This document shows positions 42,523 through 55,183 of a stretch of DNA of 64,000 nucleotides, in pieces (the stretch's first letter is position 1; each line of letters opens with the position of its first letter). This stretch comes from Gammaproteobacteria bacterium (GTDB taxonomy: Bacteria; Pseudomonadota; Gammaproteobacteria; S012-40). Location of the stretch: positions 31,592 through 95,591 of the forward strand of contig WFPC01000041.1 of assembly GCA_015487785.1 (NCBI GenBank). Direction: 5' to 3'. The notes under the pieces are model-generated. The model did not search any database. It was not told where the DNA came from and worked only from the letters and a program-made list of their open reading frames with translations. The position numbers and the translations under genes are program-made.

Positions 42523-42950
42523 TCAGCCCTGTGCCAGCTCGCTTTCGATCTGTTTCAGTTGTTCCACCAGTTGTTTCACGTTTTTGGCGCCAAGCTTCTT
42601 GCTCATGCGTCGGGCCAGGCTGCTGGCGGTCTTCTCCAGATCCTCGTGCAGACGTTCGGCCTTTTTGGTGGGTTTGATGTGGTATTCCCGGCCGTCGCCC
42701 CGAGCCAGTCGCTTGCGCACTACCAGGCGTTTTTCTTCCAGTGCGTTGATGAAGCGGGTGATGGTGGATTTTTCCAGCTTCATTTCCTCGGCGATGGCTT
42801 TCTGGGTGATACCGGGATTGGCCAGCACCACCCGCAGTAGATAGGCATGGGAGGGCGACAGGCCCAGTTCGGCAAAGGCCTGGTCCCAGATACGGTTGAC
42901 CTGACGGCTCAGGGCATTGAGATTGAAATAAAGGCAACGATCGAACATGG
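42523..42950 (-). CDS. MarR-family transcriptional regulator
   Basis: The product has a winged helix-turn-helix (LRVVLANPGITQKAIAEEMKLEKSTITRFINALEEKRLVVRKRLARGDGREYHIKPT). Start is taken at MFDRC. Confidence 0.8.
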
Positions 42951-42968
42951 CTATTACTCTAACATCGG

Positions 42969-42988
42969 CAAGTTGTTGCCGCAACTTG
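42969..42988. promoter_or_regulatory. 7-6-7 inverted repeat caagttg-ttgccg-caacttg immediately upstream of marR (candidate MarR box)
   Basis: Read from the sequence ~20 nt upstream of the marR ATG. Confidence 0.35.
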
Positions 42989-43138
42989 TTTTGGCTTGAC
43001 GCCTCCTGGTCCCAGAGTTTAGGCCACGGTGCGGACCGGGGCAAGGGGGTGTTGCGCAGGAACCCAAAACCGTGACCTGGGCCACCAAATCGCCTTCGAA
43101 GGACGGATTATGGCACCATTTCTGTTAGAATAGATACG

Positions 43139-43421
43139 ATTAACCCGGCAACAATATAGATTGCGTTCAGGGCTACAAGCGTCCTCCAGATCAAGGCGTC
43201 ACTCGCCGGCCATGGTGGCGCCATGGGCAACAGTGACAATGCCGGGATGGAGGACGCTTGTAGCCCCTAACCCATTGTTACCGATATGACAGGCCGTCGT
43301 GTACCGCTGTACGGACTGCGTTGTCGAAGCTTGCTGTAGGCCCGCTACAGCGGCGCTTCGATGCCTTGCCGTACAGCGGTACACGGCGGCTGAACACGAC
43401 CTATATTGTTGCCGGGTTAAT
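43139..43421. repeat. 283-bp non-coding element: 21-bp perfect terminal inverted repeats enclosing three further long perfect or near-perfect inverted repeats (nested hairpins)
   Basis: The terminal inverted repeat is attaacccggcaacaatatag (43139-43159) paired with ctatattgttgccgggttaat (43401-43421). Inverted repeat 2 is gggctacaagcgtcctcca (43170-43188) paired with tggaggacgcttgtagccc (43248-43266). Inverted repeat 3 is ggccgtcgtgtaccgctgtacgg (43292-43314) paired with ccgtacagcggtacacggcggc (43369-43390), with one mismatch. An inner hairpin has tcgaagc/gcttcga around gctgtag-gcccg-ctacagc (43324-43361). Confidence 0.7.
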
Positions 43422-43492
43422 ATTTGCCGGCTGCGGGGATACGGCTCGGCATTGGGATGTGTGGTGGCTCGAGGGACGGCGGCGGATTGTTC

Positions 43493-45889
43493 ATGAAACG
43501 GCTTCGCAAACTGATCAAATGGCTGGGCATCGCCGGCCTGGTGGGCAGCCTGCTGGGTGTGCTGGCCATCGTCGGCATGTTCTATTACGTGAGCCCCCGT
43601 CTGCCGCCCATCGACAGCCTCAAGGACGTGCGTTTCCAGGTGCCCCTGCGGGTCTATTCCGCCGATGGCAGGCTGATGGCCGAATTCGGCGAGAAGCGCC
43701 GTTCGCCGCTGCGCTACGAGCAGATTCCACCGTTGTTGATCAAGGCCGTCCTGGGCGCGGAGGACGATCGTTTCTTCGAGCATCCGGGGGTGGATTATCA
43801 AGGTATCCTGCGGGCGGTAGGCCTGTTGCTGCTGACCGGTGAAAAGGCCCAGGGCGGCAGTACCATCACCATGCAGGTAGCGCGTAATTTCTTCCTCAGT
43901 CGGGAAAAGACCTTTCTGCGCAAGTTCAGTGAAATCCTGCTGGCCTTGAAAATCGAAAAGGCCTTGTCCAAGCAGGAAATCCTCGAGCTCTACCTGAACA
44001 AGATCTACCTGGGCAATCGCGCCTATGGCGTGGGTGCCGCGGCCAAGGTGTATTATGGCAAGCCCATAGACGAACTCAGCCTGCCGGAGCTGGCCATGAT
44101 TGCCGGCCTGCCCAAGGCGCCGTCGCGCTACAACCCCATCGTCAATCCCCAGCGGGCGGTGCTGCGGCGCAACTACGTCTTGGGCCGCATGCGCCAACTG
44201 GGTTTCATCGACGAGGCCACATACCAGGCAGCGGTGAAGGCCCCGGTGACGGCCCGGTTGCATCGCCAGGCCCCGGAGCTGGAAGCGCCCTATGCGGCGG
44301 AGATGGCGCGCAAGTTCATGCTGCAACGTTATGGCAACGGAGCCTATACCGAGGGTTACCGGGTCTATACCACGATCGATTCACGTCTGCAGGCCAAGGC
44401 CAACCGGGCTCTACGCTACAATCTGCTGGCCTACGAGGAGCGCCACGGTTATCGCGGGCCGGAACAGCATCTCGATGCGCTGGATTACTCCGAGCCACAA
44501 CAATGGGAAGCCGCGCTACAGCAACGTCCCCGGGTGCCGCTGTTGCATGCCGGTGTGGTGATTGAGGTGGGCGAGCGTTCGGCGCTGGTGTATCTGCGCG
44601 GAGGGCGTATCGCCCATTTGTGCTGGCGCGGCCTGCGCTGGGCCGCGCCCTATGTGGACGGTAACCGGCCGGGACGCGCTCCCCGGCGAGCCGGTGATAT
44701 CCTGGCGGCAGGCGATGTGATCCGGCTGTACGATGCCGGGGGCGGGCGCTGGAGCCTGGGCCAGATTCCCCAGGTGGAAGGAGCCCTGGTATCGCTGCGG
44801 CCACGCGACGGCGCCATCATCAGCGTGGTGGGCGGCTACGATTTCTACCGCAGCAAGTTCAATCGCGCCGCCCAGGCCAGGCGCCAGCCGGGTTCCAACT
44901 TCAAGCCCTTCATCTATTCCGCCGCCCTGGAACGGGGCTATACCGCGGCCACCCTGATCAACGATGCGCCGGTGGTGTTCCGTGATCCCGGCCTGGAAGA
45001 CATCTGGCGTCCGGAGAACTACAGTGGCAAGTTCTTTGGCCCCACCCGCTTGCGTGAGGCCCTGGTGAAGTCACGCAACCTGGTCTCCATCCGTATCCTG
45101 CGTTCCATCGGTGTACCCTATGCCTTGAATTATGTGAAGCGCTTCGGGTTCGATCCACGCGAGCTGCCGCGCAACCTGTCGCTGGCCCTGGGCAGCGCCA
45201 GCCTCACGCCCTTGCAGATCGTGCGTGGCTATGCGGTGTTCGCCAACGGTGGGTATTTGGTCGAGCCCTATATCGTGGCCCGGGTGGAGGACAACGACGG
45301 CCAGGTGCTGTTCGAGGCCGATCCGGCGGTGGTATGCGAGCGGGATTGCAGTGTGGAAAGCGAGGACGGTGGCTTGCGCTTGCTGCGCAAGGCGCCGCGC
45401 ACGGTTTCGCCGGAGAATGTCTACATCATGACCAGTATCATGCAGGACATCGTCAAGCGGGGTACCGGCCGCCGGGCGCGGGTGCTCAAGCGAGGCGATC
45501 TGGCGGGCAAGACCGGCACCACCAATGACCAGCGCGATGCCTGGTTCTCCGGCTTCAATCCCGACGTGGTGGCTACTGCCTGGGTGGGGTTCGACGAACC
45601 CCGCCCCCTGGGGGATCACGAGACCGGTGGGCGCGCGGCCCTGCCCATGTGGATCAGCTTCATGCGGGAGGCCCTCAAGGGCCTGCCGGAAAAACCCCTG
45701 GTGCAACCGCCCGGCATCGTCACCGTGCGTATCGATCCCAAGACCGGCTTGCTGGCGGGACCGGATTTCCCCGGTGCCATCTTCGAGATTTTCCGCGAGC
45801 AGAACGTGCCCACCCAGAAAGTGGAACACGACCGTCAGGCCCAGGAGCAAGCGGAGGACATGGGCGGCAATATTCTCGAGTTGTTTTGA
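43493..45889 (+). CDS. mrcA: Penicillin-binding protein 1A (bifunctional glycosyltransferase/transpeptidase)
   Basis: Start is at MKRLRKLIKW followed by a TM segment. The GT51 motifs (EDDRFFEHPG, RQGGSTITMQ) and the transpeptidase motifs SNFKP and KTG are present. Confidence 0.95.
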   Translation: MKRLRKLIKWLGIAGLVGSLLGVLAIVGMFYYVSPRLPPIDSLKDVRFQVPLRVYSADGRLMAEFGEKRRSPLRYEQIPPLLIKAVLGAEDDRFFEHPGVDYQGILRAVGLLLLTGEKAQGGSTITMQVARNFFLSREKTFLRKFSEILLALKIEKALSKQEILELYLNKIYLGNRAYGVGAAAKVYYGKPIDELSLPELAMIAGLPKAPSRYNPIVNPQRAVLRRNYVLGRMRQLGFIDEATYQAAVKAPVTARLHRQAPELEAPYAAEMARKFMLQRYGNGAYTEGYRVYTTIDSRLQAKANRALRYNLLAYEERHGYRGPEQHLDALDYSEPQQWEAALQQRPRVPLLHAGVVIEVGERSALVYLRGGRIAHLCWRGLRWAAPYVDGNRPGRAPRRAGDILAAGDVIRLYDAGGGRWSLGQIPQVEGALVSLRPRDGAIISVVGGYDFYRSKFNRAAQARRQPGSNFKPFIYSAALERGYTAATLINDAPVVFRDPGLEDIWRPENYSGKFFGPTRLREALVKSRNLVSIRILRSIGVPYALNYVKRFGFDPRELPRNLSLALGSASLTPLQIVRGYAVFANGGYLVEPYIVARVEDNDGQVLFEADPAVVCERDCSVESEDGGLRLLRKAPRTVSPENVYIMTSIMQDIVKRGTGRRARVLKRGDLAGKTGTTNDQRDAWFSGFNPDVVATAWVGFDEPRPLGDHETGGRAALPMWISFMREALKGLPEKPLVQPPGIVTVRIDPKTGLLAGPDFPGAIFEIFREQNVPTQKVEHDRQAQEQAEDMGGNILELF

Positions 45890-52756: not shown

Positions 52757-54277
52757 TCAGCCGAGAAACAGGCGGTAGGCGGCGTTGTCGCTCTCGGGCC
52801 AGTAACTGTAGCCCAGTTCCTCGAGAAAGGCCTGGAATTCTTCCTGTTCCGATGGCGGCACTTGCATGCCTACCAGAACCCGCCCATAGGCGGCGCCGTG
52901 ATTGCGGTAGTGGAACAGGCTGATGTTCCACTGCTGGCCGATGTGGGTGAGAAAGCGCAGCAGGGCGCCGGGTCGTTCCGGAAACTCGAAGCGGTAGATC
53001 TGTTCATGTTTGGCGCCGGCGGCATGGCCGCCCACCATGTGGCGGATATGCAGCTTGGCCAGCTCGTTGTCGCTGAGGTCGATCACCGGGTAGCCATCCT
53101 TGCGCAGGCGTTCGATCAGGGCCTGTTTTTCATCCACGCCCTCGCGCAACTGGATACCGGCGAACACGTGGGCCTGTTGGCTGTCGGCGTAACGGTAGTT
53201 GAATTCGGTGATGCTGCGCTGGCCGATGCTGTGGCAAAAGCGGCGAAAGCTGCCCGGTTGCTCGGGAATGGTGACCGCCAACAGGGCCTCGGCCTGCTCG
53301 CCCAGCTCGGCGCGCTCGGTGACGTGGCGCAGGCGGTCGAAGTTCATGTTGGCGCCGCTCTCGATGGCGACCAGGTGCCGATCGCGAATGCCTTCGCGCT
53401 CCACGTACTTGGTCAGACCTGCCAGGGCCAGGGCGCCGGCGGGCTCGGCGATGGAGCGGGTGTCGTCGAAGATGTGCTTGATGGCGGCGCAGATTTCGTC
53501 GGTGCTGGCCAGGATGACCTCGTCCACCAGATCCCGCACCAGGCGGAAGGGCTCTTCGCCCACCTGGCGCACGGCCACCCCGTCGGCGAAGATGCCCACC
53601 TGATCCAGCTTGATCCGCTCGCCGGCGGCCAGGGCCTGGTAGAGACAGGCCGCGTCGTCCGGCTCCACGCCGATAATCTTGATCTCTGGAAACAGGCGCT
53701 TGACGTAACAGGCCACTCCGGCCAGCAAGCCACCGCCACCCACCGGCACGAAGATGGCGTGGATGTCGCCCTGGTGCTGGCGCAGGATCTCCATGGCCAC
53801 GGTGCCCTGGCCGGCGATCACATCGGGGTCGTCGTAGGGATGGATGAAGGTGAGTTGACGCTGCTGGGCCAGTTGCCGGGCATGTTCATAGGCATCATCG
53901 TAGGTGGTGCCGTGCAATACCACTTCGGCGCCCATTTCGCCCACTGCATTGACCTTGATGGGGGGCGTGGTCTTGGGCATCACGATCACCGCATGGATGT
54001 CCATGCGCTGGGCCGCCAGGGCCACGCCCTGGGCGTGATTGCCCGCCGAGGCGGCGATCACGCCTTTCTCGCGCCGGCTGGGATCGAGCAGGGCGATCTT
54101 GTTGTAGGCACCACGCAGCTTGAAGGAAAAGACCGGTTGCAGGTCTTCGCGTTTCAGCCACACAGTGTTGCCGAGTCGCTTGGACAGGCCCGGTGCCTTT
54201 TCCAGCGGTGTCACCCTGGCCACGTCGTAGACGCGGGCGCGCAGTATTTTTTCCAGATAGCCTGATTCCATCGGCAT
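52757..54277 (-). CDS. ilvA: Biosynthetic threonine dehydratase (with two C-terminal ACT-like regulatory domains)
   Basis: The 506-aa product has the PLP lysine motif SFKLRGA and aligns with E. coli IlvA from the N-terminus. Confidence 0.95.
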   Translation of the reverse strand: MPMESGYLEKILRARVYDVARVTPLEKAPGLSKRLGNTVWLKREDLQPVFSFKLRGAYNKIALLDPSRREKGVIAASAGNHAQGVALAAQRMDIHAVIVMPKTTPPIKVNAVGEMGAEVVLHGTTYDDAYEHARQLAQQRQLTFIHPYDDPDVIAGQGTVAMEILRQHQGDIHAIFVPVGGGGLLAGVACYVKRLFPEIKIIGVEPDDAACLYQALAAGERIKLDQVGIFADGVAVRQVGEEPFRLVRDLVDEVILASTDEICAAIKHIFDDTRSIAEPAGALALAGLTKYVEREGIRDRHLVAIESGANMNFDRLRHVTERAELGEQAEALLAVTIPEQPGSFRRFCHSIGQRSITEFNYRYADSQQAHVFAGIQLREGVDEKQALIERLRKDGYPVIDLSDNELAKLHIRHMVGGHAAGAKHEQIYRFEFPERPGALLRFLTHIGQQWNISLFHYRNHGAAYGRVLVGMQVPPSEQEEFQAFLEELGYSYWPESDNAAYRLFLG

Positions 54278-54289
54278 AAACTCAGGGAA

Positions 54290-54443
54290 CCTCTGATCAA
54301 TTCGTGAATACTTGCTGAGCGGCTGGAGTTTCCGGCTTCCGCGTTGTGAATCTTGACAATAGTACCAGCTATTCCCTGCGATTTACGCCTTGAATCCGAA
54401 AATTCTATCTCGCTCATGCATTCCACTCAGAATTGATCAGAGG
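54290..54443. promoter_or_regulatory. Pair of ~24-bp imperfect inverted repeats (perfect 14-bp core cctctgatcaattc / gaattgatcagagg) bracketing 125 bp of the ilvA/rpiA divergent region
   Basis: The left arm is at 54290-54303 and the right arm at 54430-54443, with extended matches ggaAcctctgatcaattcGtga / tcaCgaattgatcagaggCtcc. A TTGACA lies at ~54354. Confidence 0.4.
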
Positions 54444-54526
54444 CTCCTGACGAAAACATCCGGGTCGGTAAGGACGGGTTTGTTGTAGAATTGTCGCCAA
54501 AGCCTATTTACAGACGAGGAGGACTC

Positions 54527-55183
54527 ATGTCTCAAGACGATTTGAAGCGCGCGGCCGCCGAAGCGGCGCTGGATTATATCGAGCCTGGCAGCATTGTAGG
54601 CGTGGGCACCGGTTCCACGGTGAATTATTTCATCGATGCCCTGGCACGGGTCAAGCACAAGATCGAGGCCACGGTATCCAGCTCCGAGGCGTCCACCGAG
54701 CGTCTCAAGGCCCACGGCATCCTGGTGGAAGACCTCAACATGGTCGACGAGCTGGCGGTCTACGTGGATGGCGCCGACGAGGTCACCCGTCACATGCATA
54801 TGATCAAGGGCGGCGGCGGTGCCCTGACGCGAGAGAAAATCGTCGCCGCGGTGGCCGACAAGTTTGTGTGCATCGTCGACGAGAGCAAGCTGGTGGACAT
54901 GCTGGGACGCTTTCCCCTGCCCATCGAGGTGATCCCCATGGCGCGCAGCTATGTGGCCCGCGAACTGGTCAAGCTCGGTGGTCAGCCGGTATACCGCGAG
55001 GGTTTCGTCACCGACAACGGCAACATCATCCTCGATGTGCACAACCTGGAGATTCTCGACCCGCCGGCGCTGGAGGCCGAGCTCAACCAGATCGTGGGCG
55101 TGGTCACCAACGGCCTGTTCGCCCGCCGTGGCGCCGACGTGGTCTTGCTGGGCACCGAGCAGGGCGTGAAGACCCTGGACTGA
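54527..55183 (+). CDS. rpiA: Ribose-5-phosphate isomerase A
   Basis: The product starts [39 protein letters not shown] and is RpiA along its full length. Confidence 0.9.

Follow-up and report, generated by a model that had tools for sequence, protein, structure and literature searches.

The window analyzed here is a stretch of 64,000 nucleotides from a Gammaproteobacteria bacterium (contig WFPC01000041.1 of assembly GCA_015487785.1). It carries a MarR-family regulator gene and, in divergent orientation, ponA/mrcA, which encodes a class A penicillin-binding protein; gene calls and domains confirmed that a block of nested inverted repeats lies in the intergenic region between them. An earlier note on this DNA had read the block as a 283-bp element that was either recently mobilised and non-autonomous, or a multi-stem structured RNA of the mrcA leader. 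Our results indicate, with high confidence, that the element at 43140-43420 is a TA-duplicating bacterial MITE (miniature transposable element with inverted repeats), like Correia, ERIC and RUP. It is very probably one copy of a previously unnamed family that inhabits related, uncultured Gammaproteobacteria of sulfur, vent and sediment type, represented by Sedimenticola- and Chromatiales-like metagenome-assembled genomes (MAGs). The features of the locus, and a second palindromic element found elsewhere in the window, are the following.

42523-42948, minus strand: MarR-family regulator gene (PF01047, PF12802), the left neighbour, 191 nt from the element.
43123-43131, plus strand: extended -10-like motif TGTTAGAAT, 8 nt left of the insertion, present as TGATAGAAT in an element-free relative; putative ponA promoter.
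43138-43139: left flanking dinucleotide GA, the degenerate counterpart of the TA duplication at other copies.
43140-43170, plus strand: left terminal inverted repeat TTAACCCGGCAACAATATAGATTGCGTTCAG, with positions 1-22 and 27-31 nearly invariant in the family; presumed transposase-binding end.
43170-43267, plus strand: arm A, a hairpin module of about 98 nt (107.5 bits to the arm A covariance model), with a covarying P1 of about 19 bp, loop words GAnCAAGGCG and CAAyGCCG, a covarying P2 and the apical stem CGCCGGC..GGCAA.
43268-43292, plus strand: linker between the arms, unpaired and relatively A+T-rich, CTAACnnnnTG...GAnAG.
43293-43390, plus strand: arm B, a hairpin module of about 98 nt and inverted paralogue of arm A, with a covarying 22-bp P1 containing one T.G pair (43297/43386), conserved loops ACTGCGTT and GCCTTG, a covarying P2 and the conserved apex CTTGCTGTAG..CTACAGCGGCG.
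43390-43420, minus strand: right terminal inverted repeat, reverse complement TTAACCCGGCAACAATATAGGTCGTGTTCAG.
43421-43422: right flanking TA, target-site duplication.
43493-45889, plus strand: ponA/mrcA, class A penicillin-binding protein of 798 aa (PF00912, PF17092 and PF00905, that is, Transgly, PCB_OB and Transpeptidase).
About 54279-54450: second, more decayed palindromic element, intergenic, with a minus-strand open reading frame (ORF) at 52757-54277 on one side and an ORF that begins near 54528 on the plus strand on the other.

All the nested repeats reported in the earlier note were found. The perfect 21-nt terminal pair (43139-43159 and 43401-43421) continues to 32 nt of pairing at 91%, and the perfect 19-nt pair (43170-43188 and 43248-43266) extends to 27 nt at 89%. 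There is a 22-nt pair with one mismatch (43293-43314 and 43369-43390), and a bipartite 7+7 inner hairpin, TCGAAGC..GCTGTAG with CTACAGC..GCTTCGA, is located within arm B. The 283-bp block is therefore real, but its proposed limits are one base too wide on each side. Comparison with 20 other copies of the family assigns the A at 43139 and the T at 43421 to the flanking TA dinucleotides, leaving a non-coding element proper of 281 bp (43140-43420). As had been claimed, there is no genuine ORF: only short mechanical ORFs overlap the element, whose interior is wholly hairpin. The repeats are also unlikely to occur by chance. None of the three long repeat words has a second occurrence in the window, shuffled sequences are expected to contain none of the two longest, and RNA folding of the element, as a closing stem and two arms of about 100 nt, gave -183.6 kcal/mol against -100.8 +/- 4.8 kcal/mol for dinucleotide shuffles, a z of -17.4. 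Folding of the complementary strand is nearly as stable (z = -15.5).

A fold of such stability on both strands, with a -10-like motif on one side and the start codon of ponA on the other, could be expected of a structured cis-regulatory RNA (riboswitch- or leader-like) or of a small RNA specific to ponA/mrcA, in which a closing stem and arms would sense a signal and control the expression of penicillin-binding protein 1A (PBP1A). However, no Rfam 15 family, any ponA leader included, matched the window at gathering thresholds. With permissive E-values at the locus the arms attracted only sub-threshold microRNA-precursor models, which represent generic hairpin noise. Three other candidates were discarded. 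The element is not an intrinsic terminator, since its stems have no trailing U-tract, and the terminal repeat does not contain an outward promoter, as there is no -35 at a workable spacing. Recombination sites of the attC type were likewise set aside, as the ends fail to match RYYYAAC/GTTRRRY and the TA-flanked copies are dispersed.

The element belongs to a dispersed family, as a search for multiple copies in related genomes, suggested in the earlier note, has revealed. A scan for the terminal 18-mer AACCCGGCAACAATATAG, covering one genome per species, returned 49 loci. About 10 of these are isolated matches in unrelated phyla, with neither an adjoining TT nor further similarity, which is about the number estimated for chance. 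All the remaining loci are in MAGs of Gammaproteobacteria, 25 of them in a single MAG, JAJRUX01 ('Dive96_bin10.247'). The other carriers include two Sedimenticola MAGs, HyVt-583, D100SM.bin.19 and several Chromatiales MAGs, several of these genomes having 2-3 loci each. A scan of metagenomes, vent metagenomes included, added 6 loci. By BLAST and profile search, full-length homologues are 72-85% identical to the window copy, and many partial copies are cut by contig ends. The copies sit between ORFs, beside more than 20 unrelated genes; none is beside ponA and none occupies the marR-ponA locus, which argues against an RNA proper to the mrcA leader. We did not find the family described in the searchable literature, where one large MITE survey has no searchable sequence supplement.

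Contigs often end inside copies of the element (L053, L055, L059 and many JAJRUX01 loci), for example at positions equivalent to 43205 and 43352 of the window. The family thus fragments short-read assemblies, and the copy number in MAGs is therefore probably underestimated. In a cultured betaproteobacterium, Uliginosibacterium gangwonense DSM 18521, a 21-nt stretch with TA before it is identical to the terminus (L008:4050-4070). Neither arms nor a partner end accompany it, and no transposase is close by; it may represent an isolated end or may have matched by chance.

The ends of the copies are sharply defined. The target-site duplication that the earlier note had proposed to look for is present at all 20 of the other complete copies, which read TA, TTAACCCGGCAACAATATAG ... 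CTATATTGTTGCCGGGTTAA, TA. The terminal inverted repeats are 31 nt long, and in 13 full copies they show little or no variation at positions 1-22 and 27-31, which would be expected of an end bound by protein. Within the closing helix only positions 23-26 vary, with limited covariation. Three kinds of junction support TA both as the target and as the duplicated sequence. At L019 two copies abut through one shared TA (GGGTTAA-TA-TTAACCC). At L018 and L035 a copy is inserted in the TA of the terminal T-TA-A of another copy, giving GGGTTAA-TA-ACCCGGC. Finally, downstream of clpB, the copy at L042:7212-7560 has entered the loop of a hairpin that resembles the intrinsic terminator of this gene, and the stem halves are now 283 bp apart; once the element is taken out together with one TA, GCCACACCAGC-TTAATAACA-GGTTGGTGTGGC is restored, with a run of T (TTTTTTT) behind it. 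The sites before insertion are often TTAA-like, a preference that explains insertion into the element's own ends. Several size classes share these termini (101, 138, 158, 166, 198, 232, 281, 298 and 380 bp), and the variants have lost one arm, both arms or parts of arms, or have gained insertions.

The marR-ponA spacer was also compared between contigs. An identical MarR protein is encoded on 15 contigs. The 10 that were listed share a spacer of 544 bp that contains the element, and 3 of them stop inside it. In the only syntenic relative (L060 and L061, MarR 73% identical) the spacer has 196 bp and the element is absent. With the element taken out, the two spacers align around ATTATGG..TTTCTG(T/A)TAGAAT and GGCTG..GGGA. 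The MITE-like, non-autonomous nature proposed in the earlier note is thus supported, on the basis of multiple copies, invariant outer ends, TA flanks, deletion derivatives and a relative whose spacer has no element. Recent mobilisation, which had also been suggested, cannot be shown, since the copy is present in all of the 10 same-species contigs listed of the 15 and its left TA is degenerate. The element has the general attributes of MITEs: a length of 281 bp (the usual range is about 50-800 bp), no coding capacity, 31-nt conserved ends (10-15 bp or more being typical), TA flanks and multiple dispersed copies. The TA-flanked invariant termini and the deletion derivatives, which are transposon features, together with the element-free ponA leader of the closest relative, are difficult to reconcile with a ponA-specific RNA.

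The interior of the element is conserved in a different manner from its ends. When 20 distinct copies of each arm were aligned, double compensatory changes were found at 21 of the 39 predicted pairs of arm B and at 20 of the 34 of arm A. Standard pairs occupy 96.5% of the cells in arm B (82% with shuffled partners) and 95.6% in arm A (81%), values reached in none of 500 shuffles, while sliding the partner columns by 1-3 positions leaves 29-49% paired. Many of the swaps are transversions (G:C to C:G, U:A to A:U) common to whole subfamilies, and one-sided changes are few and private. In the asymmetric internal loops it is the sequence that is conserved: GAnCAAGGCG and CAAyGCCG in arm A, and ACTGCGTT, GCCTTG and CTTGCTGTAG...CTACAGCGGCG in arm B. 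The covariation check proposed earlier therefore supports the view that the stems are a conserved structure.

Covariation of the stems might in itself favor an RNA. However, G.U is not clearly preferred over A.C among the minor-state cells (48 versus 30 overall, 28 versus 13 in arm A and 20 versus 17 in arm B), and so mild an excess does not indicate a transcribed strand, nor do the counts decide between RNA and DNA. With the same element beside more than 20 other genes and no Rfam family, we give hardly any credence to a regulatory RNA dedicated to ponA. The orthologous resident copies L030 and L065 point in the same direction. Their flanks are 98.5-99.3% identical and the elements 97.5%; of the 7 differences between the elements 5 are in stems, and none is compensated. 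Uncompensated changes in orthologous resident copies suggest a requirement of the transposing element rather than of a host regulatory RNA. The pattern fits selection for foldability in transposing lineages, followed by neutral decay after insertion; it agrees neither with a host function at each insertion site, which is unlikely, nor with rapid self-correction. Most likely, the fold (an extruded cruciform or single-stranded DNA, less likely RNA) would be needed by the element in lineages that are still transposing.

The two arms are themselves related. A covariance model built from arm A, which gave 0 matches in a negative control of 676 kb of unrelated viral contigs, scored 40 bits (E about 1e-8) with the reverse complement of arm B and 21 bits with its forward strand, against 107.5 bits for arm A itself. 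Since the reverse complement scores higher, arm B is considered an inverted paralogue of arm A, and the two align at UUCAG, CAAGGC, CGCCG, CAAG and AACGC. A third site of the module was detected in the window at 54314-54419 on the minus strand (39 bits, E about 1.5e-8), within the decayed element at 54279-54450. This element has inverted ends of 18-21 nt, GGAACCTCTGATCAATTC and GAATTGATCAGAGGCTCC (94%), which are unrelated to the ends of the element at 43140 and are not flanked by TA, and it contains the loop words CAAGGCG, CGCAGG, CAAG and CAACGC as in arm A. In JAJRUX01 the same arms occur behind a second TA-flanked terminus, TA followed by GTACTCTyTCAAGGTAATAAATTAGGATTCAG (L033:1-240). One chimera (L046:1270-1510) has a GTACTCT-type terminus on one side and a TTAACCCGG (TTAACCC) terminus on the other, and a solo GTACTCT-type end lies beside the 3' end of a gene (L027:446-477). 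The loop word CAAGGCGNNNNNCGCNGGCAA is present in at least 120 stretches of the viral contigs, and since none of the 80 that were searched matched the covariance model, these stretches are regarded as chance occurrences. In addition, arm A of the copy at L026:4022-4122 is flipped in place with respect to arm B and the termini, and this implies that the arms of its stem have recombined with each other.

These data raise the possibility, which we regard as doubtful, that the module of about 100 nt (GAnCAAGGCG / CGCnGG / GnCAAG / CAAyGC) is the essential, exchangeable core of TA-inserting miniature elements. The subfamilies are compensated and the two orthologous resident copies are not, and mobility would therefore require folding of the DNA or of an RNA copy. 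Were this so, the family would move by a structure-dependent, TA-targeted transposition, or would be recognized by a so far unidentified protein, and not by the classical duplex-binding reaction of the IS630 type.

Another explanation is a single-strand, hairpin-dependent element of the REPIN/RAYT or IS200/IS605-PATE kind, in which a Y1/HUH transposase would read the folded arms and the ends would be no more than the closing stem. The covarying stems and conserved loops resemble those of REPINs, in which compensatory changes are frequent (PMC3116915). The arms are inverted paralogues like a REP doublet, the same module occurs with different termini, and the apex of arm B holds a GTAG...CTAC palindrome. 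The decay of resident copies beside compensated subfamilies also suggests that the fold is needed for mobility. However, such elements have neither long invariant ends nor a target duplication, whereas here 22 nt at each end are invariant and TA was found at all 20 copies, and the arms are of about 100 nt as compared with 20-40 nt for REPs. No RAYT or IS200-like gene was present among the ORFs inspected, in the inward flanks of the terminal matches and among 10 ORFs of the window. Compared with palindrome-associated elements of the IS200/IS605 type, the family has inverted ends, symmetric TA flanks and arms that are inverted, not direct. With REPIN/RAYT systems it shares the inverted doublet and the compensation, but not the arm length, the invariant 22-nt termini or the TA duplication. 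Taken together, a single-strand mechanism of this kind seems improbable.

A TA-duplicating MITE remains the explanation that we prefer. Obligatory TA duplication is a hallmark of the IS630/Tc1-mariner transposases, and a transposase of this type, the best fit to the family, most likely mobilises it. Acting in trans, such a TA-targeting DDE enzyme would move the element by cut-and-paste, binding the invariant outer 22 nt of the termini. The interior would fold as extruded cruciforms or as transiently single-stranded DNA. In a short, stiff element, folding might draw both ends together, or it might make the conserved loop words available to the transposase or to a host factor.

Several observations weigh against this explanation. 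The copy in the window is flanked by GA on the left and TA on the right, and it is the only one in its own 64 kb. No exact pair of filled and empty sites was obtained from the marR-ponA and clpB-downstream comparisons. The spacer of the syntenic relative is too diverged to reveal a clean single TA or a base-exact empty site, MarR homologues with 59% identity or less no longer adjoin ponA, and the regions downstream of clpB in orthologues with 92-98% identical ClpB are non-collinear and offered no empty site for the copy at L042. The IS630 assignment follows from the TA duplication alone; the TA target agrees with an IS630/Tc1-mariner-derived MITE, but a matching autonomous element was not found. 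There is no transposase-like ORF within 3 kb inward of the 11 single-ended terminal matches. When plasmids and phages were searched by BLAST with the end and with the whole element, the only match was one of 20 nt attributable to chance, and the terminal 18-mer is absent from the viral contigs; these searches used exact 18-20-mers and 8-kb flanks, so the absence of a partner is not proven. Ten ORFs of the window with 270-370 aa were also inspected, and none encodes a transposase (ParB, VWA, M23 peptidase, DHQ synthase and similar). Moreover, classical transposition of the IS630/Tc1 type needs no internal hairpins and would not account for the covariation.

The covariation, for its part, could partly reflect templated correction of palindromes instead of selection. 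Only two single nucleotide polymorphisms (SNPs) were found in the element among the 10 same-species contigs listed, 43297 T>C (L054) and 43386 G>A (L057). They hit the two partners of the single T.G pair, and since each restores a Watson-Crick pair, both could be templated quasi-palindrome correction or selection; they are also exactly what the collapsing of de Bruijn bubbles could produce. On this basis the element could be a decaying palindrome with no structural need, its stems kept by template-switch correction during replication or by assemblers that collapse near-palindromes. The small strand bias of the non-Watson-Crick cells and the flipped arm A at L026, in which the stems recombine as DNA inverted repeats, are consistent with this. 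However, none of the 5 stem differences between L030 and L065 has been corrected, and their elements are no more identical than the flanks. The asymmetric loops are conserved across copies that are 72-85% identical and have not been 'corrected' into stem, and the covariation includes many transversion swaps common to whole subfamilies. An assembly artefact cannot yield consistent, subfamily-wide compensated differences in independent MAGs. We therefore consider a palindrome without structural need very improbable, and retain, as more likely, a MITE whose fold would be kept by selection in transposing lineages.

The insertion may have consequences for ponA, the ATG of which is 72 nt from the right end of the element. 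The motif TGTTAGAAT is taken as the putative ponA promoter because it is conserved as TGATAGAAT in the element-free relative, and from its position the element would begin at about +1 of the ponA transcript. A consensus promoter scan called no promoter at this site, because a good -35 is lacking there, and this speaks against the assignment. If it is correct, ponA is probably transcribed with the entire element as a highly stable 5' leader, a structure of -180 kcal/mol that may shift PBP1A expression in this lineage. By analogy with Correia and ERIC elements, the leader could alter the processing or stability of the ponA mRNA, and RNase III-type processing as described for Correia elements (PMC2229807) is possible. 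For annotation, a conspicuous palindromic block before an essential cell-wall gene is in this case explained as a transposon insertion and not as a regulatory RNA. Beside the marR start there is a palindrome, GGCAAGTTGTTGCCGCAACTTG (CAAGTTG...CAACTTG, 42966-42990), and the relative L060 has ACGGTTGTTTGTGCAACCGT at the matching place. This palindrome is probably a MarR operator, and the insertion leaves it intact. A sub-threshold Rfam match to asponA ('anti ponA RNA') was found inside the ponA coding region (43558-43774, minus strand, 35.9 bits against a gathering threshold of 113). The most likely reason for this match is that the coding sequence of ponA is conserved, and not that there is an antisense RNA gene.

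Several families of TA-flanked bacterial MITEs that fold into long hairpins are known, and Correia, ERIC and RUP are tabulated by Delihas 2008 (PMC2229807). The Correia/NEMIS elements of Neisseria are, like the window family, small, non-coding and intergenic, with ends of more than 20 nt, a duplicated TA, internal-deletion variants and no known autonomous partner (PMC2229807). Co-transcription with neighbouring genes is frequent, and the long hairpins formed by the transcripts can be processed by RNase III (PMC2229807). Their termini have no evident resemblance to those of the window family, as judged from the published description and not from an alignment. Correia elements have 100-155 bp and one fold-back, and their long form includes an integration host factor (IHF) site, whereas the window family has 281 bp, two covarying modules of about 100 nt and a different lineage. 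RUP of Streptococcus pneumoniae is also a TA-targeting MITE, and its mobilisation has been attributed to IS630-Spn1 from the similarity of the terminal repeats and the TA sites (PMC2229807). RUP and IS630-Spn1 are the mechanistic model adopted here for the window family, although RUP has 107 bp, no nested hairpin modules and a matching autonomous insertion sequence, of which we found none for the window family.

The enterobacterial ERIC/IRU and YPAL repeats are intergenic imperfect palindromes like the window family, with 127-168 bp and co-transcription, and ERIC is flanked by TA (PMC2229807). Their RNA hairpins affect the stability of neighbouring mRNAs (PMC2229807), an effect on flanking mRNA that has been shown experimentally for ERIC. 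ERIC, too, has no known autonomous partner. They differ in having ends of about 7 bp and one long stem and in occurring in other taxa, compared with the 31-nt ends and two arms described here. Compensatory changes that keep a cruciform or hairpin have been reported for bcr1 of the Bacillus cereus group (PMC3184786) and for REPINs of Pseudomonas and others (PMC3116915), as in the window family, and REPINs are inverted doublets of a hairpin unit like arms A and B. However, bcr1 generates 5-bp direct repeats and not a TA duplication, and REPINs, whose transposases are tyrosine enzymes of the RAYT kind, lack both terminal inverted repeats and a target duplication, while the window family has invariant 22-nt ends and duplicates TA. 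With this description, the ends, TA target and size variants become available for an unnamed MITE family that fragments the assemblies of Gammaproteobacteria of vent and sediment type. The family is also a clean natural data set, in which the termini are conserved in sequence, the interior is conserved in structure, subfamilies are compensated and resident copies decay, and it makes directly testable the question of whether short DNA transposons must fold to move. Among the known systems it is an ordinary kind of element with an unusually elaborate internal hairpin structure that is kept across copies, and its interest lies in this strongly covarying, exchangeable hairpin module.

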